45,170 bases of DNA from an uncultured Selenomonadales bacterium (lineage in GTDB: Bacteria; Bacillota; Negativicutes; Selenomonadales; Selenomonadaceae): the NCBI GenBank assembly GCA_946547205.1, contig CAMNPA010000001.1, positions 1 through 45,170 of the forward strand, written 5' to 3'. Positions within the stretch are counted from its first letter, which is position 1; the number at the start of each line of letters is the position of its first letter. The notes under the pieces are model-generated. The model saw only the letters and a list, made by a program, of their open reading frames with translations. It made no database searches and was not told where the DNA came from. Positions 7,422 to 31,988 of the stretch are shown in pieces. The position numbers and the translations under genes are program-made.

Positions 7422-7435
7422 TTTTACGCACTCCT

Positions 7436-16943: not shown

Positions 16944-17545
16944 TCATCTGCACCGCCCAACGGAAACGGATAGCGAAGGTTTTTCAGTTGCGCACGTACA
17001 TTTTCGGACGTAATCGGCTTTAGCAGGAATCCGCCGGCTCCTGTGCTCCACGCGTCAAAGGAATATTCGACGTACGCGGTCAGATAAACAACGTTCGTTC
17101 GCGGATTTATCTCAAGCAACGAGCGGGAAAGGTCAAAGCCGTTTGTTTTGCCCGTTCCCATTTCAATATCGAGAAAAGCCAGCGCAATTAAATTTGTCTT
17201 GGCGTATTCGATCGCTTCCAACGGTCGAGTAAAGCCCGTGATTATGGCATTGGGCATCACTTCTTCCAAAATCGGCAAGGCACCCGAAAGGAAAATTTTT
17301 CTGTCGTCCACCATGATAACTTTCGGTTCGTCGTCGCTTTCCAGTACAGCCGAAATCAATGTATTAACGTCCGTACCGAGGCAACGTGAGAGACGTACAA
17401 TCATTGCGGCGTCCGGCAAACGACTGCCGTTTTCCCAGCGAGCAACCGTCGAACGAGTCACGTACATTCGTTCTGCCAATTCCCGCTGAGAAAGTCCTTT
17501 GGCTGTGCGAAACCTTCTCAAGTTTTCTGCAAACAGTATACGCAT
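16940..17545 (-). CDS. Response regulator with N-terminal XRE/Cro-type HTH and C-terminal receiver domain
   Basis: HTH: LRRFRTAKGLSQRELAERMYVTRSTVARWENGSRLPD. Receiver: KVIMVDDRK, acceptor Asp in AFLDIEMG, VVYLTAY, FLLKP. Confidence 0.8.
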   Translation of the reverse strand: MRILFAENLRRFRTAKGLSQRELAERMYVTRSTVARWENGSRLPDAAMIVRLSRCLGTDVNTLISAVLESDDEPKVIMVDDRKIFLSGALPILEEVMPNAIITGFTRPLEAIEYAKTNLIALAFLDIEMGTGKTNGFDLSRSLLEINPRTNVVYLTAYVEYSFDAWSTGAGGFLLKPITSENVRAQLKNLRYPFPLGGADE

Positions 17546-17663: not shown

Positions 17664-17699
17664 CAAAAGAGCCGCTCCGACGTTTGGAACGGCTTTTTT
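17664..17699 (-). terminator. Rho-independent terminator closing the RiPP/partner-switching operon (possibly bidirectional)
   Basis: Stem AGCCGUUCC/GGAGCGGCU with a 7-nt loop. It is followed by CUUUUGUUG on the minus strand and by UUUUUUAUUU on the plus strand. It lies about 90 nt downstream of the STAS stop. Confidence 0.55.
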
Positions 17700-17789: not shown

Positions 17790-18122
17790 TCAAGGCAAAT
17801 CTTCCGCCGTTCCATAAATTTTAACGAGCATATCCATTCCCGACGCTTCCAAAACTTCTTTGATCATGCCGCTCGCGCCGAACAGCACAAATTTTTTCTT
17901 GTCACGTTTGGATTTTTTCGCCATACGCAACAAAACTCTGAGTCCCGCGCTCGAAATGTAGTCCATCGCCGTCATATCAATCGCAATGTTTTCGTGCGCC
18001 TGCAGGAATTCGTTGCCGACCTTATCGACTTGCGACGCCGTCACAGTGTCCACGCGCCCGATTATCGAAAATATTGCCCAGTCGTTGTGTGTCGTGCTTT
18101 TAAATTCAAGTTCCTTGCTCAT
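17790..18122 (-). CDS. STAS-domain anti-sigma-factor antagonist (RsbV/SpoIIAA-like)
   Basis: 110 aa. Conserved phospho-serine context DYISSAGLRVLL and the typical length. ATGA overlap with the upstream gene. Confidence 0.9.
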   Translation of the reverse strand: MSKELEFKSTTHNDWAIFSIIGRVDTVTASQVDKVGNEFLQAHENIAIDMTAMDYISSAGLRVLLRMAKKSKRDKKKFVLFGASGMIKEVLEASGMDMLVKIYGTAEDLP

Positions 18123-18307
18123 TCGCTCTCGTCCTCCATAAATTTAAATTTTCTCGCGGCTGATACAGAATCCAATTCCTCTAAGTCAAGTTCACGGTCA
18201 AATTCGCGCCGGGCTTTCCGCACCGATAAAATCCTGCGCAATAATTCTTCGCGAACTCGGCTTAAACTCGCAAAGTTGATTCTTTTTAGTTCTTCCTCGA
18301 CGTTCAT
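18119..18307 (-). CDS. Small charged hypothetical protein (62 aa) between the RsbW-like and STAS genes
   Basis: MNVEEELKRINFASLSRVREELLRRILSVRKARREFDRELDLEELDSVSAARKFKFMEDESE. ATGA overlaps at both ends (18304-18307 and 18119-18122) argue that it is translated. No recognisable domain. Confidence 0.45.
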   Translation of the reverse strand: MNVEEELKRINFASLSRVREELLRRILSVRKARREFDRELDLEELDSVSAARKFKFMEDESE

Positions 18308-18747
18308 GACAAGCCTGCCCTGTCGTCCGAAAGTTTCATGCCCAATTTCAAATGGTTGCAAAATAATTCGCCGTCGCGCCCGAAGTGATACGACATTTCA
18401 TCGAAGATGCGCCGCATAAACGAAATGCCAAGCCCGCCGACTTTCGCCGACTCCAAGTCAGAAGGTTTTTCCTTAATCTCTTCTTTCAAGAGCGGATTAA
18501 ACGGCTCGCCGCTGTCTTTCAGCTCAATGAAGAAATGTTCAGCCTCGCGATACGCACGAATCGAAATTTCTCCGACTTCACTTCCCGTGTAAGCGTAGTT
18601 GATGATGTTCGACGCCGCTTCTTCAAAGCCCAACTCCAAATAAATCTGCTTGTCGTCGGGAACGCCTGCCTTTTCTGCCGACTCCATCACGAAATCCAGC
18701 ATCGAATAATATTCCTCGCGTGTTGCAGGAAATTTTTGCCATTTCAT
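18304..18747 (-). CDS. Anti-sigma regulatory factor-type Ser/Thr kinase (RsbW/SpoIIAB-like, HATPase_c_2)
   Basis: 147 aa. N-box-like EEAASNIINYAY, DSGEPFNP, and the ATP-lid GGLGISFMRRIFDEMSY. Confidence 0.85.
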   Translation of the reverse strand: MKWQKFPATREEYYSMLDFVMESAEKAGVPDDKQIYLELGFEEAASNIINYAYTGSEVGEISIRAYREAEHFFIELKDSGEPFNPLLKEEIKEKPSDLESAKVGGLGISFMRRIFDEMSYHFGRDGELFCNHLKLGMKLSDDRAGLS

Positions 18748-19506
18748 TATATCACCTCGCCGCCGATAGGTTTAGACGCCAACTCACAAAGAATTTCAAG
18801 TTCCGATTTGCCGTCGACTGAAATTTTATCAAGAAATTTATTGACCGCCGCATAAATTTTCGGACGTTCAAGCGGAAAAACTTTTTGGCAGTAGAATTGC
18901 AAGCGACCCGTGCATTTGTCGCCATCGAGCCCGAAAAAAAATTCTCTGCCTGTCCGAGTCAAAATTTCCAAACGTCGCGACTTGTCCGAGTGTGTCCGCC
19001 AAAATTTCGTCGAGTGCGTGATTTTTCATGCCGCCGAACAATCTCAACGTTTCGTAATGCGCCGACTCGTGTCGAAGTCTGATTGCGTGCGATTTTTCCG
19101 ACCAATCTTCCGCCGTCAACGACAATTTTTCTGCGGGAATGTTGCTGTACGGTGCGCGGTTGAGCAAAAGGATTCGGTGCGGCTCGCCGTCAATCGTCGC
19201 CGGTATCGTGAATGCGTTGACTGTCAGCGGTAAAATTTTTTTCTCGCGATTCATCAGCCACGCCGCCAATGTCGTGAAGTCGTCGTGATTTTCCGTGTCG
19301 ATGACGGGCAACTTTCCCGCCAGTGTTTGTGCGAATGAAATTTTTATCGCGCCGCGCAGTTTCAATTCCCTGCCGTAAAGTTCGGACAAAAATTTTATCG
19401 AATCGACTTCGCGCCATTTGACTAAAAATTTTTCGTCGGCAAGCGGCAAACTCGGCAAAATCTTTGGAACGTCGTAGCAGTGCGCCAAATATTCTTCAGC
19501 CGTCAA
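18747..19506 (-). pseudogene. HExxH-motif protein (putative metallopeptidase-like), split into two frames at a T8 run
   Basis: The 212-aa ORF (18868-19506; TTG start overlapping the upstream stop as TTGA) carries LRHESAHYETLRLFGGMKNHALDEILAD. Its reading continues sensibly in the 74-aa ORF frame (18747-18971: ...FFGLDGDKCTGRLQFYCQKVFPLERPKIYAAVNKFLDK...). That second frame ends in a TAATG overlap with the next gene. Removing one T from the T8 run (18934-18941) gives a single ORF of about 252 aa. Confidence 0.6.
18934..18941 (-). repeat. T8 homopolymer (A8 on the plus strand) at the frameshift point
   Basis: Plus strand ccgAAAAAAAAttc. The frame switch between the two ORF halves maps here. 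Confidence 0.9.
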
Positions 19507-21704
19507 TTTTTATCGCCACCGTTCCATTTCAAAGCCAACATCGTAATATCGTCGGACTGTTCGGCGTCGCCCGCGTGAAGTTTTATCGCCTCGCACATAT
19601 TCTCAAGCAAAATTTCAAGCGACTCCGATTTATCTTCGCCGTTCAGGACTTCGAGCAAATGATTTTCGCCAAAAAGTTTGCCCGCAACGTTCATTGCTTC
19701 CGTCACGCCGTCCGTGTACAGGAAAATCATATCGCCCGCCGACAAAACAATTTTCTTCTGCGGAAAAGGCACGTCCTCATCAATGCCGAGCATACAGCTT
19801 TTGCCAACGTCCATGAATTCAAACTTGTTGTCGCGACAGACAAGCGGCGCGTTGTGCCCGCCGTTGACGTAAACGAATTCGCCCGTCTGCAAGTTCAACA
19901 TTCCCATGAAAACCGTCACGAAAAGCATTTCGTCATTGTTTTTGCAGAGCTGTTGATTGGAAAGCGTCATCACTGCGGAAAAGTCGTCGGGATTATTCAT
20001 CGACAGCGCGAAGTTTTGCAGAATCGTTTTTGAATTTGCCATGAACAGCGCGGCAGGAACGCCTTTGCCCGAAACGTCGGCTATCGTGATGACCAAATGA
20101 TTTTCGTCGAGCAGATAGAAATCGTAAAAATCTCCGCCGACTTCTTTTGCCGCGTGCATCGTCGCGAAAATTTCAAAGTCCGTGCGGTCGAAATCAAAAT
20201 CATGCGGCAACATGCTCTGCTGAATATTCGTCGCAACGTTCAATTCGGTCGAAATGCGTTCGTTCTCGGCAGTCTCTTTCGCCAAGTTCGCCATGTAAAT
20301 TTTTAACTCGTCGGTCATTGCATTAAAGCACGTCGCAAGGTGTTCAATCTCGTCGCCCGTGTGAATGTCCAACTTTTTATCGAGATTGCCGCTTGAAATT
20401 TCGCGCACGCCGTCAGCCAGTTGATGAATCGGACTCAAAAATTTATTTGATTCGCGAATGGCGGAACGCAAAACGACAATCAACATGCCGACAATCAGAG
20501 CTGCGGAAAACAGCATTAAAAACATAAAGAGTCGTTCAATGTCGCCTTTGAAGTCGTTCATTTGCTGCATGATTTTATCTGTGGCTGTGCCGGCGGCAAC
20601 ATTAACGCTTTTATCTTCGATTATCCTGCCGAAACTCCAATTTGCAATTTTTATCGGCGCAAACGCTATGTAGTACTTGCCTTTAAAAACTTTGCCGTTC
20701 AATTCCAAGCTCACAACGTCATTTTCCATGTCCGTCATTCGCTTGAAGACCTTCGCCAAGTTTTCATCTTCACAAAGCCGCATATCGTTATCGCCGGCTG
20801 TAAAAATCCCGTCCTTTTCCGACGACATGATAATTTGTCCGTCTTGATTCACGATAACGGTTTTCATATCTTCATTTGAGTCCGAGTCCATCAGAAACTT
20901 GTAAACGTAATTGATCTCTGCACCGATTCCGACGCCGCCAGCAAAATTTCCGTCCGCATCGTGATAAGGATAAGCACCGTACAGAAAATAATTGCCGTCG
21001 ACGAGTTGCGGCTTGGTGAAAAGTCCGTTGCCCGTCTCTTTTATCGTTTGATACCAGCTCAATTTGTTTTGATAGTCGTCCGACAGCGTTACAAAAGTTT
21101 CGTTCGGATTGTAATCGACGCCGATGATATAATCGTTCTCGGAAACTATCATGATGTTGGCATTTTTGCCCGTATAATATTTTTCGGTCTGTGAAATTAT
21201 AAAATCGCCAATGTTCGACTCCAGATAAAGCTCCGCCAAAACTTCGGACGAAACGTCTTCCGCATTTTTATTGAGGAAGTGAGCATAAGCCTTTCCCACA
21301 GGAACTTTTTCATTTTTAGGATTCGGCAGGCGACGCGGAAGGTACTGCGACTTATTTTTTAAAATTGCTTCCATGTCAGCCGCGATGTATTCCACGTCCG
21401 TTGACAGCTCTTCCATTTTTCTATTGATAAGATCGGCGCGTATTTCTACTCTTTCGCGAATGTATGATTCTGTTTGCTCGCGATAAAGTTTTTCCGCCAA
21501 ATATGCCGTCTGTTCGCCCCATTGATAGCCGCGTGCGGTTATTTCAGATTCAATGAAATACAAAAACAGCGGCGCAGTCACCAATATAAAAAGGAACGTC
21601 ACCGCGACGCCTGAAAGTGACAGAAACAAAACACTCCGCCGCAAGCTCTTCTTTCGGAACGTCTTGTTAAGAAAATTTGTATATGCCTTGAGCTTTTCTA
21701 TCAT
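19503..21704 (-). CDS. Membrane sensor PP2C-type serine phosphatase (RsbU/SpoIIE family): TM, Cache-like extracytoplasmic domain, TM, HAMP, PP2C
   Basis: TM1 VLFLSLSGVAVTFLFILVTAPLFLYFI and TM2 LFMFLMLFSAALIVGMLIVVL flank about 330 aa. HAMP: IHQLADGVREISSGNLDKKLDIHTGDEIEHLATCFNAMTDEL. PP2C: ATNIQQSMLP, GGDFYDF, ITIADVSGKGVPAALFMA, NGGHNAPL, LYTDGVTEA, DDITMLAL. The ATG at 21704 lies 13 nt after the rSAM stop. The track start at 21725 is a TTG. Confidence 0.9.
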   Translation of the reverse strand: MIEKLKAYTNFLNKTFRKKSLRRSVLFLSLSGVAVTFLFILVTAPLFLYFIESEITARGYQWGEQTAYLAEKLYREQTESYIRERVEIRADLINRKMEELSTDVEYIAADMEAILKNKSQYLPRRLPNPKNEKVPVGKAYAHFLNKNAEDVSSEVLAELYLESNIGDFIISQTEKYYTGKNANIMIVSENDYIIGVDYNPNETFVTLSDDYQNKLSWYQTIKETGNGLFTKPQLVDGNYFLYGAYPYHDADGNFAGGVGIGAEINYVYKFLMDSDSNEDMKTVIVNQDGQIIMSSEKDGIFTAGDNDMRLCEDENLAKVFKRMTDMENDVVSLELNGKVFKGKYYIAFAPIKIANWSFGRIIEDKSVNVAAGTATDKIMQQMNDFKGDIERLFMFLMLFSAALIVGMLIVVLRSAIRESNKFLSPIHQLADGVREISSGNLDKKLDIHTGDEIEHLATCFNAMTDELKIYMANLAKETAENERISTELNVATNIQQSMLPHDFDFDRTDFEIFATMHAAKEVGGDFYDFYLLDENHLVITIADVSGKGVPAALFMANSKTILQNFALSMNNPDDFSAVMTLSNQQLCKNNDEMLFVTVFMGMLNLQTGEFVYVNGGHNAPLVCRDNKFEFMDVGKSCMLGIDEDVPFPQKKIVLSAGDMIFLYTDGVTEAMNVAGKLFGENHLLEVLNGEDKSESLEILLENMCEAIKLHAGDAEQSDDITMLALKWNGGDKN

Positions 21705-21717
21705 TGAAAATTCCGCC

Positions 21718-23112
21718 TTATGCAACTACTCGTTTCAAACCTAAACTTTTGGCAAGCGCAATGATTTTGTCGTAGTAGCCGCCTTTGAAAAAATTGCACG
21801 TGCTTTTATCAACGCCGAAAAAATCTCCGTCGCCATTGTCGTACATTGCCATTCCGCGACAGCCGCCGCCGCAACGATTTTTATAATCGCAGTCCGCGCA
21901 TTCGGGATGTTTTTTGAAATATTCGCCAAGTCGCGTGGTCATAAGACGCATATACGTTTCGTCGTCCAAAATTTCCTTCAAGCTCTTGTCCGTTATTCGA
22001 GAAAAAAATTTTTTGTTGCCTTGAGCATAATTCATCGGCATACACGGAACTACAGAGCCGTCGCAATCGATCTGCATGTAGTTTCGCGCGTGTCCGCACA
22101 CGCAATGATTGTCGCACTTAAAATTTTCAGCCATTTTGACAATCGGAATTGAATATTCGGTCGTGTCGTAAGCCGCAAACATTCCCGACAAATGCAATGG
22201 TATCGGCGCGCCGTCGGCAATGTATTGCGGAATATATTCAAGGAAAAAATCATCTTGTTCTGCTCGCGTCAAAAGTTTGTCTTGCATGTCGTAAGCCGCG
22301 CCCGCCGCAAAAATTCTTCCAATGCCTACCGAATCGACGCCAAGTTTCGCCAAAAGTTTCACGCTCTCGCGAACAGAGTCAAGGTTGCCTTTGTGCAGGT
22401 CGAAAGATACATGTATGTTAAGATTTCTCTCGTGCAACAGCTTGACCGCCCGATAAAAAGCTTTTTCCGCGCCGTTAAAGCCTCTAAGCCAGTCGTGGCA
22501 ACCGATTCCGTCAAAACTTATTTGAAAGCCCGGACGCCAATTCCGTTTCTCCATCTCGGCAAGAAATTTTTCGTTAATCAGAATTCCGTTGGTGAAAATT
22601 TTTTTGACTCTGATGTCTTTGGCAAACAGCTCGTCGACAATTTCCCAAAAGTCTCTGCGAATTAAAGGCTCGCCGCCAATCAACGACACGCTTTGAACGC
22701 CGCAGTCAGCCATTTGCGCGATGATGTCCATGCATTGCTCGTGCGTGAACTCTTCAACTTTTTGCGGCGACGACGACATATAACAATGTCGACATTTGCA
22801 ATTGCATCTGCCAGTTATCAGCCACGCAATCGCGCGCAAAAATCGGTTGTCGTGAAATTTATACTCCTGAGAACTTTCGAGCGGCGAAATTTTTTCTGTG
22901 GTCTCAACATAACCGTCCGCGATAAATTTTTCAATGATTTTGCGTTGCGTCTCGTCAAACGATTCGCTTGCCGTTTTTCCGTCGCACAACTTGAGCACGT
23001 TATATTTTTTCGTCGGAAAGAAATTGACCTTCCGATTCTCGCGATTAACCACGCCGGTCGGCAAAAGTTTCCAGCCGCGCAACATGTATTCGCTTTTGAG
23101 TCTGTAAAACAT
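21718..23112 (-). CDS. Radical SAM / SPASM-domain peptide maturase
   Basis: Radical SAM cluster motif GRCNCKCRHCY (CxxxCxxC). C-terminal auxiliary-cluster cysteines CDNHCVCGH...DCDGSVVPCMPM...CADCDYKNRCGGGCRGMA. The ATG at 23112 is preceded by AAGGTGA. An alternative ATG at 23184 overlaps the precursor stop (ATGA). Confidence 0.9.
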   Translation of the reverse strand: MFYRLKSEYMLRGWKLLPTGVVNRENRKVNFFPTKKYNVLKLCDGKTASESFDETQRKIIEKFIADGYVETTEKISPLESSQEYKFHDNRFLRAIAWLITGRCNCKCRHCYMSSSPQKVEEFTHEQCMDIIAQMADCGVQSVSLIGGEPLIRRDFWEIVDELFAKDIRVKKIFTNGILINEKFLAEMEKRNWRPGFQISFDGIGCHDWLRGFNGAEKAFYRAVKLLHERNLNIHVSFDLHKGNLDSVRESVKLLAKLGVDSVGIGRIFAAGAAYDMQDKLLTRAEQDDFFLEYIPQYIADGAPIPLHLSGMFAAYDTTEYSIPIVKMAENFKCDNHCVCGHARNYMQIDCDGSVVPCMPMNYAQGNKKFFSRITDKSLKEILDDETYMRLMTTRLGEYFKKHPECADCDYKNRCGGGCRGMAMYDNGDGDFFGVDKSTCNFFKGGYYDKIIALAKSLGLKRVVA

Positions 23113-23180
23113 TTCTTCACCTTGTCTGAAAAAAAAGGCAGGACTATTATTAATCCCGCCAAACAAATTTCTTTTTTTCG

Positions 23181-23477
23181 TCATTTGTTAAGATGTGGTG
23201 CACGGTTAGGATCACAGTCTCCGCCTTTGCCGCCTGCGACAGCTTCGAGTTCGTCGGCAGAAATTTCGCCTTCCTCGTCAGCATCTTGAGCCGCGAAATA
23301 AGCTTTTGCCTCGTCGAGAGAAATGTTGATGCCGAGTGTTTTGGCAAGTTCGCCGAGTTGAAGGATCTGCTCATCTGTCGCGTCCTCAACAGGAGTTTTG
23401 CCGATAATCTTTTTGACTTCAGCCCTGACCGCGTCGTCGCTCATAGCTCTCGTGTAGAATTCCTGAAACTTATCCAT
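23181..23477 (-). CDS. RiPP precursor peptide with Nif11-type leader and double-glycine cleavage site; predicted core KGGDCDPNRAPHLNK
   Basis: 98 aa. Leader MDKFQEFYTRAMSDDAVRAEVKKI...ILQLGELAKTLGINISLDEAKAYF resembles the Nif11 N-terminal domain. ISADELEAVAGG fits the double-Gly consensus (hydrophobic at -12, -7 and -4; E at -8; GG at -2 and -1). RBS GGAGG lies 9 nt before the ATG. Confidence 0.85.
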   Translation of the reverse strand: MDKFQEFYTRAMSDDAVRAEVKKIIGKTPVEDATDEQILQLGELAKTLGINISLDEAKAYFAAQDADEEGEISADELEAVAGGKGGDCDPNRAPHLNK

Positions 23478-23641
23478 AGTGAATACCTCCGTTAAATTTT
23501 TGTTGCTGTCGATTCAGCTTGTCCCTTGCGGCTCAAATTTTTACTTCCTAATCATATATACGCTCGAAAACGCAAACCGTTAGGGCTTCCGAAAAAAAAA
23601 TTTTTCGCGCCGAATTCGGTTGAGCCTCGCCGCCATTTTAC

Positions 23642-23669
23642 TTGACACAGAAAAAATTTCAACTAAAAT
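23642..23669 (+). promoter_or_regulatory. Near-consensus sigma70-type promoter for the GNAT-ACP-KS arm
   Basis: TTGACA (23642-23647), 16-nt spacer, TAAAAT (23664-23669), about 18 nt upstream of the ATG at 23687. It sits in the ~210-bp divergent region shared with the precursor gene. Confidence 0.5.
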
Positions 23670-23686
23670 TTACGCGGGTGATCATC

Positions 23687-24595
23687 ATGCGAAAAATAAT
23701 CAACGCTGCGTATCAAGATTATACTTTCTTGTTTCGGGACAGTCGCACGACTTATTCCGACTTGTGCGTAAAAAAATCTGCCGCCGAAAAAAATTTTTAC
23801 ATCATGATTGAAGACAATTTTCCTGCGGGCTATATCTGCGCGAGCTCTGAACGAAATATTCTTTATGTTAATTACGCGTACACCGTGCCGGAAAAAAGAA
23901 GTCGCGGGATTTTTACTTCGCTGCTGAAATTTCTGACCGAGCTTGAGGAAAATTCTGCAGTTATGGTTCAAAGCCCGGCTGCCGATAAAAAATATTCAAA
24001 GACCGTCGCCGATATCTGTGAAACGCTTGGCTTTCAAAAAAATTCCGTCTGCAGAACATCTTGCTCCGATTGGAACTGTCTTCGCGAGTGGAAAGAAATT
24101 TTTTTCGATAAGTTCATGGCGGACAAGGGCAATAAATATCTCGAATTCTTTGCGCGGCGTGATTTTAAAATTTTGTCATTTGCAGACGCGTCGTCGGAGC
24201 ATTTGGAGCAGCTCTATCATTCGCATGAAAATTATTTCGGCAATACCTTCGACGTGAGAAAATATTTCGACGGCTACGACAAAAATCTTGTAGACAATGA
24301 CTTGAGCTTTGTCGCCGTTAAAAATGACGAAGTCGCCGCGTACTTTCTGACACTCGCGGTCAATAAAAATAATCTTATCGCCGAACAAACTGCAGTCGCA
24401 AAAAAATATCTCGGCAGCGGCTTGATGTTCGTTTTGCTGAATGAATTCGTTCAGAAACTTTACGCTCGCCGGTGCGATAAACTTGCCTTTGCCGTTTACG
24501 AAGACAATTTCGCCGCGATTAAGTTCTACGATAAAATTACCGGGCAGCTCAAAACTTCGCACGGATATATTTGCAAATTCCTGTTGAAAAAATGA
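23687..24595 (+). CDS. Tandem GNAT-fold acyl/acetyltransferase (candidate peptide lipid transferase)
   Basis: Two GNAT-like halves. The first has VPEKRSRGIFTSLLKFL ... ICETLGF. The second has VAKKYLGSGLMFVLLNEFVQKL ... VYEDNFAAIKFYDKITG (acyl-CoA pocket R/QxxGxG/A and N..A..FY.K.G patterns). ATG at 23687. The track start at 23642 is the TTG of the -35 box. Confidence 0.6.
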   Translation: MRKIINAAYQDYTFLFRDSRTTYSDLCVKKSAAEKNFYIMIEDNFPAGYICASSERNILYVNYAYTVPEKRSRGIFTSLLKFLTELEENSAVMVQSPAADKKYSKTVADICETLGFQKNSVCRTSCSDWNCLREWKEIFFDKFMADKGNKYLEFFARRDFKILSFADASSEHLEQLYHSHENYFGNTFDVRKYFDGYDKNLVDNDLSFVAVKNDEVAAYFLTLAVNKNNLIAEQTAVAKKYLGSGLMFVLLNEFVQKLYARRCDKLAFAVYEDNFAAIKFYDKITGQLKTSHGYICKFLLKK

Positions 24596-24609
24596 TTGGA
24601 GGAACCTTC

Positions 24610-24882
24610 ATGACGAATCTTGAACAAAAAATTTTTGACAAGCTGATTGAGCGGCTGAACATTGCGCCGAGCGAACTTGAAGGCGTCGACGAAAATTCAC
24701 CGCTCTTTGAAGGCGAGACCGACGAACCGTCATTTAATCTGGATTCTCTCGACAGCCTGGAACTGATTTTTCTGATTGAAAGCGAATTCGGCTTTGAAGT
24801 GCCCGCAGAAGATATGAGCAAGTTCACGACGATAAAAGCAGTCGCGCAATACGTCGACGAACATTTGAGGGCAGGCAAATGA
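24610..24882 (+). CDS. Acyl carrier protein
   Basis: 90 aa. Phosphopantetheine-attachment motif FNLDSLDSLELIFLIESEFG. RBS GGAGG lies 7 nt before the ATG at 24610. Confidence 0.85.
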   Translation: MTNLEQKIFDKLIERLNIAPSELEGVDENSPLFEGETDEPSFNLDSLDSLELIFLIESEFGFEVPAEDMSKFTTIKAVAQYVDEHLRAGK

Positions 24883-26090
24883 ATCGCGCGGTAATTACCG
24901 GGATCGGTCTGATTTGTTCCAACGCCGAAAACAAAAAAGAATTCGCCGAAACATGTTTCAGCGGACGAGTCGGAATGAAAGAATGCAAAACTTTCACGAC
25001 CGCAGGGCTGACCACGCCTTTTTTCGGCGAAACCTGCGATAAATATTCTCTTGACGCGCCGTATGATAAAAATTCGCTCACTGACAACCGATATTATTGC
25101 ATGTTGGAAAAATCTCTGCGCGAAATGATGACTGACGCCGACATTGACAGAGATTATGTAAGTTCGCTCGGAAAGAGTTGCCGAATGTTTTTCGGGACGT
25201 TCATTTACACTGCCGAAGCCAGAAATTTGCGCCGCAGAGCACGAAAAATCGGCGAAGTTGATAATTCAATCGCTTTTGTCAATGATTATTCCGCCTTCGC
25301 AAAAAAAATTGTCGGCGTCAAAGGCACGGTCACGACGGTTACAACGGCTTGCTCTTCGTCCTCGGCGGCGGTCGGCATGACTTTTGATTATATTCGCCAC
25401 GGCATTTGCGATTGCGCGATCGTTGTCGGCGTGGACAATCTTTCCATTGATGATGCATACGGTTTTCACGCGTTGAGACTTTTGAGCAACGGCATTTGCA
25501 ATCCTTTCGACAAAAATCGCGACGGAATTAACATCGGCGAAGGCTCTGTCGCATTTTTTATTGAATCATTGGAGCACGCGAAGGCTCGGCAGGCGAAAAT
25601 TTATTGCGAATTGGTCGGCTACGCTCTTGGAAACGACGCTTATCACATAGTCAGTCCCGAACCTTCGGGCAAATCGGCTTGCAATGTGATGAAAAATGCT
25701 CTTGACGACGCCAAAATCTCAATTTCCGCCGTGGATTACATTAACGCGCACGGAACGGGAACAATTTTAAATGACTCTATGGAATTGAAGGCGATTGAAA
25801 AATTAATGGCTGATACCGACAAAAAAATTTGGGTGTCTTCCACAAAATCGATGATCGGGCATTGCATGGGCGCGGCGGGCGCGATTGAAATTGCGAGCGT
25901 TATCCTGTCGATGAATCACAAAAAATATATTCCGATGCCGAACTTGAAAAATCCTATTGAACACAGCGAAAAAATTTGCATGTCGAGTGAAACTTTTCCG
26001 CTTGAGATAAATTACGCGCTCTCAAATAATTTTGCGTTCGCCGGAAACAATTCCGCATTGGTTCTGAAAAATTTCAAGGACGGAGATTAA
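24879..26090 (+). CDS. Beta-ketoacyl-ACP synthase (KAS I/II-like, Cys-His-His)
   Basis: Active-site Cys in VTTACSSSSAAVG. His in NAHGTGT and STKSMIGHCMGAAGAIE. ATGA overlap with the ACP stop. Confidence 0.9.
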   Translation: MNRAVITGIGLICSNAENKKEFAETCFSGRVGMKECKTFTTAGLTTPFFGETCDKYSLDAPYDKNSLTDNRYYCMLEKSLREMMTDADIDRDYVSSLGKSCRMFFGTFIYTAEARNLRRRARKIGEVDNSIAFVNDYSAFAKKIVGVKGTVTTVTTACSSSSAAVGMTFDYIRHGICDCAIVVGVDNLSIDDAYGFHALRLLSNGICNPFDKNRDGINIGEGSVAFFIESLEHAKARQAKIYCELVGYALGNDAYHIVSPEPSGKSACNVMKNALDDAKISISAVDYINAHGTGTILNDSMELKAIEKLMADTDKKIWVSSTKSMIGHCMGAAGAIEIASVILSMNHKKYIPMPNLKNPIEHSEKICMSSETFPLEINYALSNNFAFAGNNSALVLKNFKDGD

Positions 26091-26093
26091 TTT

Positions 26094-27068
26094 ATGAAAC
26101 CGATTTACATTCAAGGCGTCGGAGTCATTTCAAGATTTGCGCTCAACTTTGAAGACTTGCTAAAAATCGCCGCCGATGAATCGTTTGCCATTAATTTTGA
26201 TAAGAAATTGTCTTTCGCGCCCAATGCGCCTTTGTCCAAAATCAGACGTGCTCCGCGTTATACTCGAATGGCAGTTTCTGCGGCGGCTCAAGCCAAAATC
26301 GACGCAAATTTATCTGACGACCAAGATAAAGCGCGCGTGGGAACGATATTTTCAAGCGGCTTCGGTTCTTTGGAAAGCACGTTGGAGTTTTCCGATTCAC
26401 TTTTGCCCGGCAAACCTGATTTGGTGAGTCCGATTTTGTTTTCTTATTCGGTTGCCAATGCGTGCGTCGGACAGATTTGCATTTTGAACGGCTTTACGGG
26501 CTTCAGCACATTGTTGACGGCAGGCGACCCTTTGGAATATTCCGCAATGTTGCTTGCGACCGATAAAGCTGACGTAATTTTTTGCGGCGCGACAGATGAA
26601 TACAACGAGGAACTTGACACTGCGATTAAGTCGTGCGGGATTTTGCAAGAAAAAATTTCTGACGGCGCGGCAGTGTTGATTCTTTCGACCAACGCAGAGA
26701 AAAGTTATTGCCGAATAAAAAAATTCTCTTCGGGCTCGCTGGCGGCATATCCTTACATTCACAAAACGGATACGGCTGACAGCGCGGAAGTTTTGGCGGA
26801 AATTTTTTCGGTTTATGAAGAGCCGGAAGTTATCTTAACGTCCTGCAACGGCTCTTACTTCGACGCGATAGAAAAAACTGTGCTGAAAGAAAAATTTAGA
26901 GCTGCCCGACTTATCGACGCGAAAAAATATTTCGGCGAGACTCTCGGCGGCGGCTATATGCTCAACGTGACATTGGGCGCGGCATTTATAAAGCTCGGAC
27001 GTTGCAAATCGTTGTTGGCTGCGGGAATCGACGTTCACGGCAATTATCTGACTGCATTTCTGGATTAG
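26094..27068 (+). CDS. KS-like partner lacking the catalytic histidines (chain-length-factor-like)
   Basis: 324 aa with a thiolase-fold pattern (SYSVANACVGQICILNG). The positions matching HGTGT and GH..GAAG read SCNGSYF and GETLGGGYM, so the His dyad is absent. Confidence 0.65.
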   Translation: MKPIYIQGVGVISRFALNFEDLLKIAADESFAINFDKKLSFAPNAPLSKIRRAPRYTRMAVSAAAQAKIDANLSDDQDKARVGTIFSSGFGSLESTLEFSDSLLPGKPDLVSPILFSYSVANACVGQICILNGFTGFSTLLTAGDPLEYSAMLLATDKADVIFCGATDEYNEELDTAIKSCGILQEKISDGAAVLILSTNAEKSYCRIKKFSSGSLAAYPYIHKTDTADSAEVLAEIFSVYEEPEVILTSCNGSYFDAIEKTVLKEKFRAARLIDAKKYFGETLGGGYMLNVTLGAAFIKLGRCKSLLAAGIDVHGNYLTAFLD

Positions 27069-27086: not shown

Positions 27087-29774
27087 TCAAGCAATTTGAC
27101 GCTTGACCAAATCGGAGAAAATTCCGTTCAGCGCAACGAGTTCATCAAACGTGCCGCTCTCAACGATTTTTCCTTTGTCGAGCACAATGATTCGGTCGCA
27201 ATCTTCAATCGTGCTCAATCGGTGCGCTACGACGATTCGCGTGACGTTCCGCTTGTTCAAACTCTCGGTGACAATGGCTTGAGTGCGATTATCGAGCGCG
27301 GAAGTTGCCTCGTCGAAGATTAAAATTGCAGGTTTGGCGGCTAAAGCTCTCGCGATTAAAATTCGTTGACGTTGTCCGCCGGAAATATTTGTCGAGCCTT
27401 CGCTGATGAAAGTTTGCATGCCCATCGGCATTTTTTTTATGTCTTCGTCGAGACCGGCGGCTTTTGCGGCTTCCCAAGCGTCTTCTTGCGTCAAAGCAGT
27501 CGCGCCGACAATGTTTGCAAAAATATCGCCGCTCATGAGTTGTCCGTTCTGCAAAACGACGCCCATTTGACTGCGCACCGACGAAACGTTGAGTTCCGAC
27601 AAGTCTTGACCGTCATAATAAACTGCGCCGCTTTTTGGCTCTTCAAAACCGAGCAGCAATCGGAGCAACGTCGATTTTCCGCAACCGCTCTTGCCGACAA
27701 TCGCAACGTTCTCGCCCGCCGCAATCCGAAAACTCATGTCGTCGACAACATTTGGCGAATCGGCTGTGTAGGAAAAAGTTAAATGCGAAACTTCAATCGC
27801 GCCGCTCAAAATGTCCGCGTCCGGCTTGTCGGCTGAAACTTCGGGCATCTCTTCCAAAATCGGTCGCAAGTTCTCTATCTGCGGCTGAATCACGAAGAAT
27901 TTTTCGATAAAGCCCGTCAGCGTGTTCAAAGCCATATTAAAACTCGTGAACGCTGCTTGAAACGCGATGAACTCCGCGAAGTCAATTCCCGATACGAAAA
28001 TTTCGCCGTTGAGTTCACCCAAAACGTAAAACGCCACGTAAAAAAGCAACAACGTCATTGTCAACGGCTGAATTGCCGCAAAAGTGTTGAGATATTTGGA
28101 TTGCAGACTCAGTGCATAATTCCATTTCCATTCCTCGCCGAAAACTTTGCTCCAGAGAAAATAAGCCTGCTCTTCCGCGCCGCCGATTCTGAATTTCGGC
28201 AAGCCCGTAAATATTTGCTGAACCATTCCCGAATTTGCATTCTTCGCCGCGACCCATTTGACTTGAAATTCTCCGAACTTGCGGCAGAGAAAAAACGTCA
28301 CTGCCACATAAAACAGCCACAAAACTAACGCCGCCGCCGTCAACTTCAAGCTGTACCAGCACATTAAAAGCAAACTCCAAAATGAAAACAGCACGTTGAG
28401 TATCGCCGCGATCATTTCGCCGCTTAAAATTTCTTTTATCTTTTCTATTCCCAAAATCCTCTGCGCCAGTTCGCCGGATTGAAAGCGTCGGAAAAAACTC
28501 GTCGGCAAAGCCAAGATTCTGCCCCAAAGTGCCGCTTCCGTCTGCATGTCGATATGCGACGTGATTCTCAGCACCGCGATTGAACGCACGATTGACACCG
28601 CCGCCATTGTGAACGCCGTGACGATTGAAACTTGCGTGACGATAACCAAGCCGCGCCTGTCGAGTATCGGAATTATGTCCGCGAAGATGCTTTGCGTGAT
28701 AATCGGCGTGACAATCGGAATTAAGCCCGCGACAAAACTTGCCGCCAAAATTTGACGATAATCGACGCGCCAAATGCGATTCAGCATGAATCTCATCAAG
28801 TCGACGAACTTCAACGGACGCAACGGCAAGCCCGCATAACATTGGAACGCGCTCGGCTCAATCTGCGCGGCAATTTGTTTGTCAATCAGAGTTCCGTCGA
28901 GATTTTTCGCGGTGATAAGTTTGTAAACGTCGGGACTTTGCGGAATGAACGCTGCAAGCTCTTTCTTGTCGCCGAAGTAGCCGATAAAAATTCCGCTGTC
29001 CTTTTGAAACCAGTCGCCTTCCAAAGTCACGAGTCGCATTTGCATATTTGCCTTTTGCACGAGACGACGAATCAAACCGATTTGATCGAGGTTCTTGGCA
29101 ATTTCCGGAGCAAGTCGCAGATTATTCGCGGGCATACCCAAAAATTTGGCGACACTCTTAACGAGGAAAGCAATTTCTTCCAATTTGCCTTCGCCGCCGG
29201 AATCTTCGCCGTACAGTGATTCTTCGCCGCGGAGATTGTCAATCGCCGCGTTGATGAGATTTTTTTTGTGACGACTGCGAGTTTCGAGCCGCATTTCCAA
29301 TCGTTTATCTTCCGCATCAAAACGCATGCCGAGCAGCATCGCGAAAATCTGTTCGTTTTCGGTGAAGTCGTCGAGCAAAGTTTCCAAGTCGTTTTCCGAG
29401 CCGCGCAGGACTTGTCCGTTTATCCACGGGATTAACACATCGTCGCCTTTGTCAGCCAAAAGTTTAAGCCACGGCAGCTTTATCAAATTTTGGAACCACG
29501 CGCGCATTAAATTTGCCTGTTCGAGCGGCGAAACTTCGTTGAACGATAAAATTTCAAGCTCCGAATCTTGCACGGCGTAAATTTGCATGTCGATTTGCTC
29601 AAATTCGTCCAGCGACGGATAAGCAGCTCCGTTTATCGGCAGCTCCATTAAAAAAATTTGTCGGAATGATTCTTTTAATTGAGTGACGGCGTAAACTTCA
29701 GCCGCGCCCGATTTCAGGCGAACAAATTTATTTTCGTCGTGCAGTTTAAATCGTTGTCCCGCCAAAAGTTTCAT
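27087..29774 (-). CDS. ABC exporter (TMD+NBD) with a ~330-aa N-terminal non-peptidase domain; second ABC of an NHLM-type bacteriocin export cassette
   Basis: Walker A GKSGCGKSTL, signature ISGGQRQRILIARAL, Walker B ILIFDEATSALD. The N-terminal extension has no C39 Cys/His motifs. The ATG at 29774 is preceded by GGAGG and overlaps the upstream stop (ATGA). The track start at 29945 is an extension inside the upstream gene. Confidence 0.85.
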   Translation of the reverse strand: MKLLAGQRFKLHDENKFVRLKSGAAEVYAVTQLKESFRQIFLMELPINGAAYPSLDEFEQIDMQIYAVQDSELEILSFNEVSPLEQANLMRAWFQNLIKLPWLKLLADKGDDVLIPWINGQVLRGSENDLETLLDDFTENEQIFAMLLGMRFDAEDKRLEMRLETRSRHKKNLINAAIDNLRGEESLYGEDSGGEGKLEEIAFLVKSVAKFLGMPANNLRLAPEIAKNLDQIGLIRRLVQKANMQMRLVTLEGDWFQKDSGIFIGYFGDKKELAAFIPQSPDVYKLITAKNLDGTLIDKQIAAQIEPSAFQCYAGLPLRPLKFVDLMRFMLNRIWRVDYRQILAASFVAGLIPIVTPIITQSIFADIIPILDRRGLVIVTQVSIVTAFTMAAVSIVRSIAVLRITSHIDMQTEAALWGRILALPTSFFRRFQSGELAQRILGIEKIKEILSGEMIAAILNVLFSFWSLLLMCWYSLKLTAAALVLWLFYVAVTFFLCRKFGEFQVKWVAAKNANSGMVQQIFTGLPKFRIGGAEEQAYFLWSKVFGEEWKWNYALSLQSKYLNTFAAIQPLTMTLLLFYVAFYVLGELNGEIFVSGIDFAEFIAFQAAFTSFNMALNTLTGFIEKFFVIQPQIENLRPILEEMPEVSADKPDADILSGAIEVSHLTFSYTADSPNVVDDMSFRIAAGENVAIVGKSGCGKSTLLRLLLGFEEPKSGAVYYDGQDLSELNVSSVRSQMGVVLQNGQLMSGDIFANIVGATALTQEDAWEAAKAAGLDEDIKKMPMGMQTFISEGSTNISGGQRQRILIARALAAKPAILIFDEATSALDNRTQAIVTESLNKRNVTRIVVAHRLSTIEDCDRIIVLDKGKIVESGTFDELVALNGIFSDLVKRQIA

Positions 29775-31984
29775 TGGCTTGCCTCCGCCGTATTTTTGGT
29801 GCTGCCTTGAATCAATCTGCGATAAGCTCCGTCGTGCTGAATCATTTCGCGATGAGTGCCGCGTTCGACGACTTTGCCTTTGTCCAAAACAATAATCTCG
29901 TCGCAGTCTCTGATTGTCGAAAGTCTGTGCGCCACGATAAAACATGAACAGCCGCGCCGCCGAATATTTTCCAGAACAATTTTTTCGGTCACGGGATCAA
30001 GTGCACTGGTTGCCTCGTCCAAAACCAGAATCGACGGATTGTTTGCCAAGGCGCGAGCAATTTCGAGCCTTTGACGCTGACCGCCCGAAAAATTCAAGCC
30101 GCCTTCGGAAACTTGAGCCTCGTAGCCGCCTTCGAGTTTCAAAATGTCGTCGTGAATGCAAGCGTCCTGCGCCGCGCGGATAACGTCATCTTTTTTGGCG
30201 GAAGTATCAAACAGCGTGATATTTTCGCGAACGGTGCCCGTGATTTGGAAAATGTCTTGGTCAACGGACGACAGCGAATTAACAATGACATCGCGCGGAA
30301 TTTCACGACGAATCACACCGTCAAAGAGAACGTCGCCGCTCCATTCCTCATAAAAGCCCGTCAAAATTTTTGAGAGCGTCGATTTTCCGGAACCGCTGAA
30401 ACCGACAATCGCGACCCAACGTCCCGGCTCCACGTGCAAATTAAAATTCTCCAAAAGCGGCGGCTCAAGCGGACTGTAGCCGAAATTTACGTTGCTCAAT
30501 TCAATTTCGCCCGATAAGCGCGTGCCGTTGAAATTATTTGCGCGAGTTTCTTCGGGATAATTCAAACCGTCGACTTGATAGCGATAAACGTCGTCGAGGC
30601 GTTGCATTTGCATTTCCGTCGTCTGCAAAGTCGTTCCGAGTTTAACCATTTTATCGACCGGCTCTTGAAACCTGCCCATCAAATTTTGAAACGCCGTAAA
30701 AATGCCCGCCGTCATCACGCCTTCCATAATCGAAAAGCCGCCGAGTGTGATTATCAGCGCGGAATTTATTCCCGTGAGCAGAGTCGGCAAAACATTCATC
30801 GTCAGCGACTTCATTTGAACTTCTTGCGTGCCGATTAAAGCTTTTGAGTGATAGCCTGCCCATTTCGCGAAAAAATCGCTTTCGTTGCCGTTCGCCTTGA
30901 TAGTTTCGATAATCGCCAGTCCGTTTACCGCAACTCCGAATTCTTTTCCGAGTGCCTGCTGAACTTGCATATTCATATCCGTAATTTGTCGGCGCAAAAG
31001 AAAAAAAACGATTAAATCTACGACGCTGAAGCTCACGCCGATAATCGTCAGTGTCACGCTGTATTGAAACAGCAACGCGAGATAAAACAGCGCGATAAGA
31101 AAATCCAAGACAGCCGTTGCCGCTTGATTCGCCAAAACTCTTGAGATTAAATCGATGAAACTTACTCGCGACGCTATTTCGCCCGCGTATCGTTGCTGAA
31201 AGAAAGTCATCGGCAATCTTAGGACGTGCCAAAAAAATCTTGACGAGTCGGAGAGCGTCAATTTCTTTTGCCAGCGCGTCAGCAAAATCGTTCGCAAAAT
31301 GTTGAGAATGCCCGTCAAAATGATTGTGCCGATCATCGCCAAACATAACTTCGGCATCCAATCGGGATGTTTGCCGCTCAAGATGTCGTCGAGAAAAATT
31401 TGATTGAACACGGGCGACGCCAGACCCGGAAAAATCATTGCCGCACCAATCAGCATGACGAAAATCATTGCAACTTTATCTTGAGCGAGTTTTTCCGAAA
31501 TGGCTTTGACGACGCTGTATCTTTGACCTTCGCGCCTAAAATTTTCGTCGGGCTTGAACGTCATCGCAATGCCGGTGTAAGACGTGGAAAAATCTTTCCA
31601 AGGAACTTTTCGCCGACCCATCGCCGGATCGTTAAGATATGCAACGTCGCCGATAATGCCTTCCAAAACGACGAAATGATTGAATTCCCAATGGATTATC
31701 ATCGGGAAAGTTTTTTTCTTTAAAGTGTCCGCCTTCCAACGAAAAGCTTTTGCTTCCAAGCCGAGATGTTTAGCCGCTTTTAAAATGTTTGCCGCTTTGG
31801 AGCCGTCGCGATTGACGCCGCATTCTTGACGCATCTTTTCGAGCGGAACCCAACGTCCGAAACTCGCCAAAATCATTGCCAACGCCGCCGCGCCGCATTC
31901 GACAGACTCCATTTGCAAAATCGTCGACACCTTCACGCGCGAACCGTCTTTTGCCGCGAAAAATTTTTTTATCTTGCCAATCAT
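29771..31984 (-). CDS. Bacteriocin-processing ABC exporter with N-terminal C39 cysteine peptidase domain
   Basis: C39 motifs: QMESVECGAAALAMILASFG (catalytic Cys) and IIHWEFNHFVVLEG (His). Walker A GFSGSGKSTL, signature FSGGQRQRLEIARAL, Walker B ILVLDEATSALD. ATG at 31984; the track start at 32053 is a TTG. Confidence 0.9.
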   Translation of the reverse strand: MIGKIKKFFAAKDGSRVKVSTILQMESVECGAAALAMILASFGRWVPLEKMRQECGVNRDGSKAANILKAAKHLGLEAKAFRWKADTLKKKTFPMIIHWEFNHFVVLEGIIGDVAYLNDPAMGRRKVPWKDFSTSYTGIAMTFKPDENFRREGQRYSVVKAISEKLAQDKVAMIFVMLIGAAMIFPGLASPVFNQIFLDDILSGKHPDWMPKLCLAMIGTIILTGILNILRTILLTRWQKKLTLSDSSRFFWHVLRLPMTFFQQRYAGEIASRVSFIDLISRVLANQAATAVLDFLIALFYLALLFQYSVTLTIIGVSFSVVDLIVFFLLRRQITDMNMQVQQALGKEFGVAVNGLAIIETIKANGNESDFFAKWAGYHSKALIGTQEVQMKSLTMNVLPTLLTGINSALIITLGGFSIMEGVMTAGIFTAFQNLMGRFQEPVDKMVKLGTTLQTTEMQMQRLDDVYRYQVDGLNYPEETRANNFNGTRLSGEIELSNVNFGYSPLEPPLLENFNLHVEPGRWVAIVGFSGSGKSTLSKILTGFYEEWSGDVLFDGVIRREIPRDVIVNSLSSVDQDIFQITGTVRENITLFDTSAKKDDVIRAAQDACIHDDILKLEGGYEAQVSEGGLNFSGGQRQRLEIARALANNPSILVLDEATSALDPVTEKIVLENIRRRGCSCFIVAHRLSTIRDCDEIIVLDKGKVVERGTHREMIQHDGAYRRLIQGSTKNTAEASQ

Positions 31985-31988
31985 GCCG

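Follow-up and report, generated by a model that had tools for sequence, protein, structure and literature searches.

The Bacillus partner switches RsbU/RsbV/RsbW-SigB and SpoIIE/SpoIIAA/SpoIIAB-SigF comprise a SpoIIE-family PP2C phosphatase, a STAS protein bearing a phospho-serine, and a GHKL kinase (HATPase_c_2), together with a cognate sigma factor. In Pseudomonas aeruginosa, SiaABCD pairs a kinase and a STAS-like protein with a sensor phosphatase of the HAMP-PP2C type, and SypE/SypA and HmpU/V/W are other examples of switches that lack a sigma factor. For clusters encoding ribosomally synthesized and posttranslationally modified peptides (RiPPs), the usual regulators are two-component systems, quorum peptides, or, among actinomycetes, pairs of an extracytoplasmic function (ECF) sigma factor and its anti-sigma factor. 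Here, we describe a partner switch that is embedded in a RiPP operon. The operon (positions 23477 to 17790, minus strand) lies in a 45,170-nucleotide (nt) stretch of contig CAMNPA010000001.1 from an uncultured Selenomonadales bacterium, hereafter termed the 45-kb window, and the source names of matched records identify the organism as a diderm rumen member of the Selenomonadaceae.

As in the Bacillus switches, the window encodes a SpoIIE-family PP2C, a STAS protein with a conserved serine, and a GHKL kinase that has N, G1, and G2 boxes and finds its best PDB match in RsbW. Unlike those switches, its phosphatase is a membrane-bound Cache-HAMP sensor, a 62-amino-acid (aa) protein (p62) is encoded between the kinase and the STAS protein, and the module is placed inside a RiPP/export operon. 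Nor is there a group-3 sigma: the sigma factor of this cluster family is of the ECF type and is encoded in sister clusters, whereas no cognate sigma is co-encoded in the 45-kb window. With respect to SiaABCD, the best NCBIfam match of the phosphatase is SiaA, but its score (76 bits) is far under the cut-off (700 bits), the genetic context is different, and Pfam searches of the open reading frames (ORFs) detected no diguanylate cyclase (GGDEF) gene in the operon or the window.

The btr locus of Bordetella encodes BtrS (an ECF sigma), BtrA (an anti-sigma that is exported), and the BtrU/BtrW/BtrV switch, with major facilitator superfamily (MFS) and ABC transporter genes between them; the sigma drives cargo and apparatus genes, and BtrU/BtrW/BtrV control type III secretion by a mechanism that is still unknown (PMC7498569). 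The cluster family described here likewise encodes an ECF sigma together with PP2C, kinase, and STAS in an export locus. Such a sigma gene is present in the related loci L001, L036, L040, L041, and L043 (L numbers denote loci of our survey), along with a promoter motif before the precursor genes, and the window has the PP2C/kinase/STAS set within its export locus and the motif only. The family differs from btr in that a C39-peptidase ABC transporter, HlyD, and TolC serve a RiPP in diderm Firmicutes in place of a type III injectisome, and in that the sigma is missing from the window copy. No homologue of BtrA was found here, and p62 is no more than a candidate for a functional counterpart.

NHLP/Nif11-class systems with an NHLM export cassette (TIGR03794/03796/03797) were reportedly described by Haft and colleagues in 2010. 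The window shares with them a leader ending in GG, three export-cassette models above cut-off, and an adjacent maturase gene; however, our full-text searches did not find a partner switch, DUF7005, p62, or an ECF sigma described as components of such systems. In the cluster of the lantibiotic microbisporicin, the ECF sigma of the MibX/MibW pair drives the biosynthetic operons in a feed-forward, auto-inducing manner (PMC4973701). A dedicated ECF sigma within a RiPP cluster is common to both, but the microbisporicin system has a membrane anti-sigma and no PP2C/kinase/STAS layer, and belongs to Actinobacteria rather than Negativicutes. Lastly, GNAT acyltransferases are encoded in the Nif11 clusters of selidamides, which are lipidated peptides (PMC8784127); the window resembles these in its GNAT gene and in a core that starts with Lys (PMC8784127), but adds a dedicated acyl carrier protein (ACP), a ketosynthase (KS)/KS-like pair, and a radical S-adenosylmethionine (rSAM)/SPASM enzyme. 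The original prediction did not recognize a partner switch in a RiPP operon as described, and our full-text searches agree: no publication that they returned connected partner switching or anti-sigma proteins to a Nif11 or other RiPP cluster. The system joins two known elements, a partner switch and an ECF sigma within a locus for export, and the exported product is here a RiPP.

RESULTS

Organization of the operon

Seven genes run from 23477 to 17790, all on the minus strand, in the order precursor, rSAM/SPASM maturase, PP2C, DUF7005, kinase, p62, and STAS (coordinates below refer to the minus strand unless stated otherwise). Both this co-directional arrangement and the make-up of the switch (a Cache/HAMP PP2C, an RsbW-like kinase, and an RsbV-like STAS protein) had been proposed in the original prediction, and they are confirmed by the ORFs, by Pfam and NCBIfam domain assignments, and by matches in the PDB. 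More specifically, the phosphatase (19503..21704) has the architecture transmembrane segment (TM)-dCache_1 (periplasmic)-TM-HAMP-PP2C, with Pfam E values of 1e-49 for SpoIIE (spanning profile positions 2-191 of 192), 2.1e-14 for dCache_1, and 5.5e-11 for HAMP. The RsbW/SpoIIAB-type GHKL serine kinase, which is anti-sigma-factor-like (18304..18747; HATPase_c_2, 4.2e-21), has RsbW (6m36) as its best PDB relative, and its N-box, G1 box (DSGEPFNP), and G2 box (GGLGI) are conserved in the alignment. The anti-anti-sigma-type STAS protein (17790..18122) matches Pfam STAS at 8.2e-17 and TIGR00377 at 68.5 bits (cut-off, 53.45), and in an alignment with TM1442 its conserved, phosphorylatable Ser58 (DYISSAGL) falls on the DSAGL serine.

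The genes are tightly packed. The precursor and rSAM genes either overlap by ATGA at 23184-23181 or, if the rSAM enzyme starts at ATG 23112, are separated by 68 nt; the rSAM/PP2C gap is 13 nt, and the following junctions are TTGA (PP2C/DUF7005, 19506-19503), TAATG (DUF7005/kinase, 18749-18745), ATGA (kinase/p62, 18307-18304), and ATGA (p62/STAS, 18122-18119). All of these had been predicted; the TAATG junction exists only once a +1 frameshift in DUF7005 is corrected. The 4-nt overlaps of kinase, p62, and STAS are also found in L001, L033, L036, and L043, and are kept among relatives with just 63-85% protein identity. The operon ends in a strong, intrinsic-terminator-like hairpin (17670..17694; -24.6 kcal/mol, z = -5.4), which is not the sole terminator-like hairpin as first thought: a second one lies at 23160-23129.

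Related clusters and their sigma factor

Our survey of related loci was anchored on DUF7005 (32 genome loci), and PP2C and sigma homologues used as anchors gave further contigs. For the partner switch, the survey rests on PP2C homologues and contig look-ups; kinase searches used domain-limited profiles, and a narrow kinase-alignment search of metagenomes led to one locus, L039. PP2C/kinase/STAS genes were linked to Nif11-type precursors, rSAM enzymes, DUF7005, and the NHLM cassette, in differing gene orders, in L001-L004, L036, L040, and L043, and the same link was seen in distant clusters from Selenomonas (L025), Synergistaceae (L029/L030), Anaerovibrio (L017), and an unclassified metagenome-assembled genome (L032). 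The embedding of the switch in a RiPP operon is therefore not peculiar to the window, and recurs in several Selenomonadaceae cluster variants. In L025, a MatE transporter is fused to HATPase_c_2 by a weak match under the Pfam cut-off (25.4 < 27.4), and phosphatase and kinase form one protein (dCache-HAMP-SpoIIE-HATPase_c_2); these fusions lie at 4008-5816 and 6798-9428, with STAS and DUF7005 next.

The window itself contains no sigma factor, as predicted, according to Pfam searches of 38 ORFs (including every large non-overlapping one), a sigma hidden Markov model (HMM), and tblastn with the cluster sigmas; a TolC-type outer-membrane protein is likewise absent from the 45 kb. Its closest variants have both. 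In its full one-strand form (L043, L040), the cluster reads HlyD-HlyD-C39 ABC-ABC2-ECF sigma-[promoter]-precursor(s)-maturase(s)-PP2C-DUF7005-TolC-kinase-p62-STAS. In L043, the part from ABC2 onward reads ABC2-ECF sigma-Nif11 precursor-rSAM-PP2C-DUF7005-OEP(TolC)-kinase-p61-STAS; L040 is arranged as L043, with two adaptors and the C39 ABC transporter in front and with extra maturases, and is cut after the kinase. In L001, the export cassette and sigma are placed after STAS, which is directly followed by the HlyD genes. L036 has the layout of the window, including an inverted GNAT-ACP-KS block, plus sigma and TolC: the space from ABC2 to the KS-like gene is occupied by the gene of a 182-aa ECF sigma, and TolC is encoded between PP2C and kinase. 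At the former position, the window has just an 18-nt gap from the ABC2 stop (27087) to the convergent KS-like stop (27068).

The sigma gene directly follows ABC2 in L036, L043, L040, L001, L005, L012, and L041, and adjoins STAS, which it follows, in Anaerovibrio L017; sigma, PP2C, kinase, p62, and STAS are all present in one cluster in L001, L036, and L043. These sigma factors form a discrete clade, with 58-99% identity within it and a drop to <=37% outside. An unlinked member of the clade (68-75% identity) is encoded at 6105-6638 of L042, a contig that shares its BioSample with L033, one of the window-like contigs; the neighbors of this sigma gene are KS III, AMP-binding, and LuxC genes, and no promoter motif was found nearby. 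A PP2C of L005 (64% identical) was rejected as a part of that cluster, being 10 kb off and beyond housekeeping-type ORFs that we took, on the basis of their translations, for IleRS, DnaN, and RecF.

Two contigs from different samples, L033 and L034, have the same layout without sigma or TolC. In the window lineage, sigma and TolC are out of the cluster, GNAT-ACP-KS lies between cassette and precursor, and DUF7005 is frameshifted in the assembly. By these comparisons, the window cluster is a derived member of a family that is conserved in Selenomonadaceae, and it has lost sigma and TolC in cis. The original prediction treated the absence of a sigma factor as a property of the system. This was not supported: the closest variants carry a family-specific ECF sigma after ABC2, the window has kept its promoter motif, and the window copy is probably not truly sigma-less. 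The prediction had also named orthologous modules lying beside a sigma factor and never beside RiPP genes as an outcome that would count against it; they do lie beside a sigma factor, yet also beside RiPP genes.

Transposase, resolvase, and IS605-type genes flank several related clusters (L002, 6700-9000; L040, 1-1900; L041, 1000-2500), which suggests that these clusters were moved or rearranged by mobile elements. Paralogous Selenomonadaceae Cache-HAMP-PP2C/STAS(/kinase) modules occur in L037 and L038; their neighbors encode a GlcNAc 2-epimerase, DJ-1, a thiamine pyrophosphate enzyme, and an amylase, or a ShlB-type two-partner secretion system with an exoprotein of >5000 aa.

An ECF-type promoter motif precedes the precursor operons

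About 80 nt upstream of the precursor ATG, the window has an ECF-type promoter-like motif (23557..23608), in which an A5T9 tract (23605-23592) is followed by GCCCTAACGG, 14 nt, and CGTATATA; the entire motif reads AAAAATTTTTTTTT-cggaa-GCCCTAACGG-N14-CGTATATA. Its AAC (23581-23579) and CGT (23562-23560) are 16 nt apart, a spacing typical for ECF promoters, and the A/T tract is part of the motif in other clusters too. The window contains one match, relative to 0.00 expected from shuffled sequences. In total, we found 12 occurrences (~10 distinct sequences), each 5' of precursor/maturase genes or of the L036 PP2C gene. They precede both precursors in L001 (two copies), the first precursor and the PP2C gene in L036 (two copies, the second one heading the PP2C-TolC-kinase-p63-STAS genes), the FAD-enzyme/precursor block in L040, two precursors and the FAD-enzyme gene in L041 (three copies), and the precursor in L043; the motif is also present in L033/L034.

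With the exception of the window lineage, which retains the motif without a sigma gene, all motif-bearing clusters carry an ECF sigma gene. The motif was absent 5' of the export/sigma operons in those clusters, where sigma-70-like promoters are found instead. Sigma clade, motif, and precursor operons thus co-occur, and we infer that the sigma clade may read the AAC-N16-CGT motif.

The sensor phosphatase is a mosaic

Among phosphatases whose catalytic domains are 75-90% identical to that of the window, the periplasmic sensor regions fall into at least four unrelated types, with 20-30% identity from one type to another. Between the window and L001-type phosphatases, identity is 86-90% in the catalytic domain and 20-28% in the sensor; the sensor has been swapped as a block, its identity being either 20-28% or 72%, against a constant 77-90% for the catalytic domain. 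Common to the window and L036 are the sensor (72%), the rSAM enzyme (82%), and a GDCDPN core. Relative to L001, the window has similar kinase (84%) and ABC2 (85%) proteins, and different sensor (23%) and rSAM (55%) proteins with unrelated cores. From these identities, it looks as if the precursor and maturase genes are exchanged en bloc with the 5' half of the PP2C gene. One sensor type, termed B (71-88% identity among its members), is found with two maturase/precursor sets that are unrelated, one in L001/L002 and the other in L004, the rSAM enzymes of the two sets being ~22% identical.

The original prediction had suggested that the Cache domain may sense the mature peptide of its own cluster. 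The exchange of the sensor as a block fits this idea, and sensing of the cognate product is possible; it is not generally supported, because sensor type B accompanies two unrelated maturase/precursor sets.

p62 and DUF7005

The orphan protein p62 (18119..18307) is soluble and highly charged, and the overlaps of its ORF with those of kinase and STAS suggest that it is translationally coupled to both. Pfam, NCBIfam, and the PDB contain no relatives, and the family has 11 representatives among 1.84 billion proteins. It is present wherever the sigma is present and coverage suffices (L001, L036, L043, L005, and L012). Its C-terminal half contains a motif like that of double-glycine leaders, with AA replacing GG, followed by a variable tail of 10-20 aa; the invariant L40, L45, A50, and A51 and the conserved V/I48 correspond to leader positions -12, -7, -2, -1, and -4, respectively. 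An hhalign comparison placed p62 in register with the end of the Nif11 leader over 13 columns only (P = 0.003, probability 10%). Global homology of p62 to Nif11 leaders was therefore rejected in favor of a resemblance in motif. A pheromone role for the p62 tail, with the Cache domain as its sensor, was also rejected: the tails of the window (RKFKFMEDESE) and L003 (RNFVIMEDKSNEH) are alike, yet the two sensors are just 23% identical. The p62 protein could be an anti-sigma adaptor, a leader mimic binding the C39 domain, or both.

The DUF7005 gene (18747..19506; PF22541, 2.4e-30; HESAH...NHALDE) is split by the +1 frameshift, which lies in a T8 run (18934-18941) where relatives have T7. Three independent near-identical contigs (L033, L034, and L035) have T7 and an intact DUF7005 of 252 aa, in line with the 250-270 aa of homologues; the T8 run could be an assembly error, a very recent mutation (pseudogene), or phase variation. 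The HExxH and NHxxDE motifs are invariant among homologues. An AlphaFold2 model (pLDDT, 92.8) compared with the PDB gave nothing at E <= 0.001 and weak, nonsignificant zinc-peptidase-like matches only, and a peptidase is a reasonable guess. In other clusters, the gene is very often found directly 3' of ABC2 or overlapping the PP2C stop. Full-text literature searches returned nothing on DUF7005.

Precursor, maturase, and internal hairpin

The RiPP precursor (23181..23477; 98 aa), recognized by its sequence and ribosome-binding site (RBS), has a Nif11-like leader ending in ELEAVAGG and the core KGGDCDPNRAPHLNK. A family HMM ties it to 30+ precursors with VAGG sites, and Pfam Nif11 was found in the homologous precursors of L041 and L043; in the Pfam scan, the window precursor itself was below threshold. 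The core of the second L036 precursor reads EKGDCDPNSAPHLN... The maturase (21718..23112, in an ORF open from 23184) matches Pfam Radical_SAM (3.6e-18) and SPASM (2.2e-9); its identity is 82% with the enzyme of L036 and 55% with that of L001, and every NCBIfam maturase model stayed under its cut-off. A GGTGA RBS precedes ATG 23112, which is the probable start rather than 23184, because a hairpin with a U8 run sits directly 3' of the precursor gene.

This terminator/attenuator-like hairpin (23129..23160; 10-bp stem plus U8; -16.7 to -18.4 kcal/mol, z = -2.85) lies after the precursor stop and before the probable rSAM start, and so leaves the rSAM and phosphatase genes unseparated. A GC-rich hairpin with U8 is found at the equivalent position of L036. 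A hairpin of this kind could be an attenuator, and an attenuator 3' of the precursor gene is a common arrangement in RiPP operons. An Rfam scan of the entire window matched no RNA family, and therefore no riboswitch in the leader region.

Genes surrounding the operon

Upstream of the precursor and on the same strand lies an NHLP/Nif11-class export cassette (27087..34194), comprising an adaptor of the membrane fusion protein/HlyD type (32941-34194), which is additional to the NHLM set, the NHLM HlyD (31989-32978; TIGR03794, 216.2 > 156.2 bits), a C39-peptidase ABC transporter (~29771-31984; TIGR03796, 994 > 853.3 bits) with its C39 Cys and His motifs present, and ABC2 (27087-29774; TIGR03797, 766.8 > 709.4 bits). 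The ABC2 ORF is listed as 27087-29945 (952 aa), its homologues have 895 aa, and its real start is probably ATG 29774, abutting the stop of the C39 ABC gene; the N-terminal ~340 residues before its membrane domain have no Pfam match. A tetratricopeptide repeat protein (weak CFI-box-CTERM match) and three consecutive dynamin-family GTPases are encoded immediately 5' of the cassette (34231-41983), in its orientation and separated by very short gaps; the corresponding position in L040, L041, and L005 lacks these genes.

Between cassette and precursor, the divergent GNAT-ACP-KS-KS-like operon (23642..27068, plus strand; assigned by Pfam/NCBIfam) is preceded by a near-consensus sigma-70-like promoter (TTGACA-16-TAAAAT). 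The GNAT-ACP-KS block is also found in L036 and L033, and beside the precursor in L028, and its genes are probably peptide lipidation genes of the same cluster. In GNAT-block clusters, cores mostly start with Lys (window, L036 precursor 1, L028), and L036 precursor 2 has Lys at position 2. Because the cores beside GNAT blocks mostly begin with Lys, the genes suggest a lipidated, rSAM-modified peptide as product.

Directly downstream of STAS, Pfam identified an HTH_3-REC response regulator and a LytS-type histidine kinase (15678-17545), a pair that was overlooked when the window was said to hold no obvious output gene. It is also present at 1457-3312 of L008 (69-80% identity), convergent to the DUF7005 gene, and does not follow STAS in L036 and L043. 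Farther out, all on the minus strand, are a WYL/WCX-domain regulator just 3' of the two-component pair (14256-15530), a NusG paralogue amid Sel1-repeat and metallophosphoesterase genes (12301-12864), and, at the window edges, a complete type I restriction-modification system (HsdS, HsdM, HsdR; 941-6217) and a >1000-aa protein with RTX calcium-binding repeats (42096-45149).

DISCUSSION

What we observed directly are the parts of the system, how they are ordered and conserved, and a promoter motif that co-occurs with the sigma gene. The interactions that we propose are read from them: the partner switch may be the signal-input layer of an ECF-sigma circuit that drives the RiPP operon, with sigma and TolC acting in trans in this organism, a reading that we favor tentatively and to which we give somewhat less than even weight. 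In such a circuit, the Cache domain would sense a periplasmic cue and set the activity of the PP2C, which would remove the phosphate from STAS-Ser58~P; unphosphorylated STAS would capture the kinase, and the family-specific ECF sigma would be released, either directly or via the translationally coupled p62. The sigma would then transcribe the precursor-maturase-switch operon from the AAC-N16-CGT promoter, closing a feedback loop because the switch genes share their transcript with precursor and maturase, while the hairpin 3' of the precursor gene would keep precursor mRNA in excess of enzyme mRNA. Sigma and TolC would be supplied from elsewhere in this genome; trans-encoded parts are needed anyway, because TolC, which is required for diderm export, is missing from the window. 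In favor of this circuit are the domain identities and the conserved 4-nt overlaps, the presence of sigma, switch, and p62 together in the closest variants, the adjacency of STAS and sigma in L017, the discreteness of the sigma clade, the distribution of the motif (including the copy ahead of the switch genes in L036), the sigma gene that L036 has in place of the 18-nt junction, and the unlinked clade member of L042.

Several points weigh against this circuit. The window lacks a sigma gene, and none was seen in the DNA retrieved for the distant switch clusters L025, L029/L030, and L032, or near the paralogous modules of L037 and L038. L005 and L012 have sigma, p62, and DUF7005 without kinase or STAS, so that the sigma does not need the switch. 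RsbW-type kinases are anti-sigma factors for group-3 sigmas, and we know of no tested case of an RsbW-type kinase acting on an ECF sigma. The kinase domain is linked to transporters, both in the weak MatE fusion of L025 and in L029/L030, where it adjoins an MFS-domain protein. Finally, the Bordetella btr switch controls secretion, not BtrS-dependent transcription (PMC7498569).

The strongest alternative is a posttranslational control as in Btr, in which the switch would act not on a sigma but on how the peptide is exported or processed, for example via the ABC transporters, TolC, or DUF7005. By analogy with Btr, we regard this as possible, although it is the less likely of the two, and we rank the ECF-sigma circuit slightly above it; both depart from the sigma-less framing of the original prediction. 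The genomic arrangement provides several arguments for gating: (i) switch genes are interleaved with export genes, TolC being placed between PP2C/DUF7005 and kinase, HlyD following STAS in L001, and DUF7005 elsewhere lying directly 3' of ABC2; (ii) the window and the distant clusters have the switch without the sigma; (iii) the paralogous STAS-PP2C pair of L038 is beside a two-partner secretion system; and (iv) in NCBIfam, the STAS protein has a weak similarity (5e-5, below cut-off) to MlaB, itself a STAS protein and a regulator of an ABC ATPase. The transporter-linked kinase domains of L025 and L029/L030 point the same way, but the MatE-HATPase_c_2 match is under the Pfam cut-off, and export gating leaves unexplained why sigma, motif, p62, and switch occur so tightly together in the clusters nearest to the window. 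Its precedent is the Bordetella switch (PMC7498569).

It is improbable that the module is a sigma-less autoinduction device in which Cache senses the mature peptide of its own cluster and the output falls on maturation or export. Sensing of nisin by NisK is a comparable autoinduction, and the sensor does co-vary with core and maturase: both are close between the window and L036 (GDCDPN) and distant between the window and L001, whereas the kinase, STAS, and ABC2 of L001 are as similar to those of the window as their L036 counterparts are, or more so. Nevertheless, sensor type B occurs with two unrelated maturase/precursor sets, adjacency alone could account for the joint replacement of precursor, rSAM, and PP2C 5' half, and the sigma and its promoter belong to the cluster family.

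Within the ECF-sigma circuit, a more specific role for p62 can be imagined that we consider a long shot, namely as a leader-peptide mimic coupling exporter activity to transcription in the manner of FlgM or BtrA, within a three-tier STAS-kinase-p62-sigma switch. L-12, L-7, V/I-4, and AA(-2,-1) would dock the C39 peptidase domain or a C39-like region of ABC2, while the N-terminal helix of p62 would hold the ECF sigma or the RsbW-like kinase; an active transporter would export or capture p62 and so free the sigma, with the Cache-PP2C/kinase/STAS switch gating this step. If true, p62 would be a new kind of anti-sigma adaptor.

Least likely is a decaying or hitch-hiking module, that is, a degenerating cluster whose switch is no longer tied functionally to the peptide: sigma and TolC are lost and DUF7005 is frameshifted relative to sister clusters, and insertion sequence elements and resolvases border several related clusters, but all genes other than DUF7005 are intact, the three contigs with an intact DUF7005 indicate that an assembly error may account for the frameshift, the promoter, the RBSs, and the gene overlaps have been kept, and L033 and L034 have the same sigma-less, TolC-less layout in different samples.

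Taken as a family, these clusters have a serine-phosphorylation switch wired into a Nif11-class RiPP and export cassette, conserved across a family of abundant rumen bacteria. Conserved alongside the switch are a dedicated ECF sigma, a recognizable promoter, an orphan leader-like mini-protein, and the uncharacterized HExxH protein DUF7005. Their organization is that of a chassis and cassettes: the export/regulation backbone is conserved, and precursor, maturase, and sensor domain are exchangeable. The sigma and its promoter motif would offer a handle to activate silent clusters of the family heterologously, and the family provides a second, genetically simpler system for asking what Btr-type switches in export loci bind.

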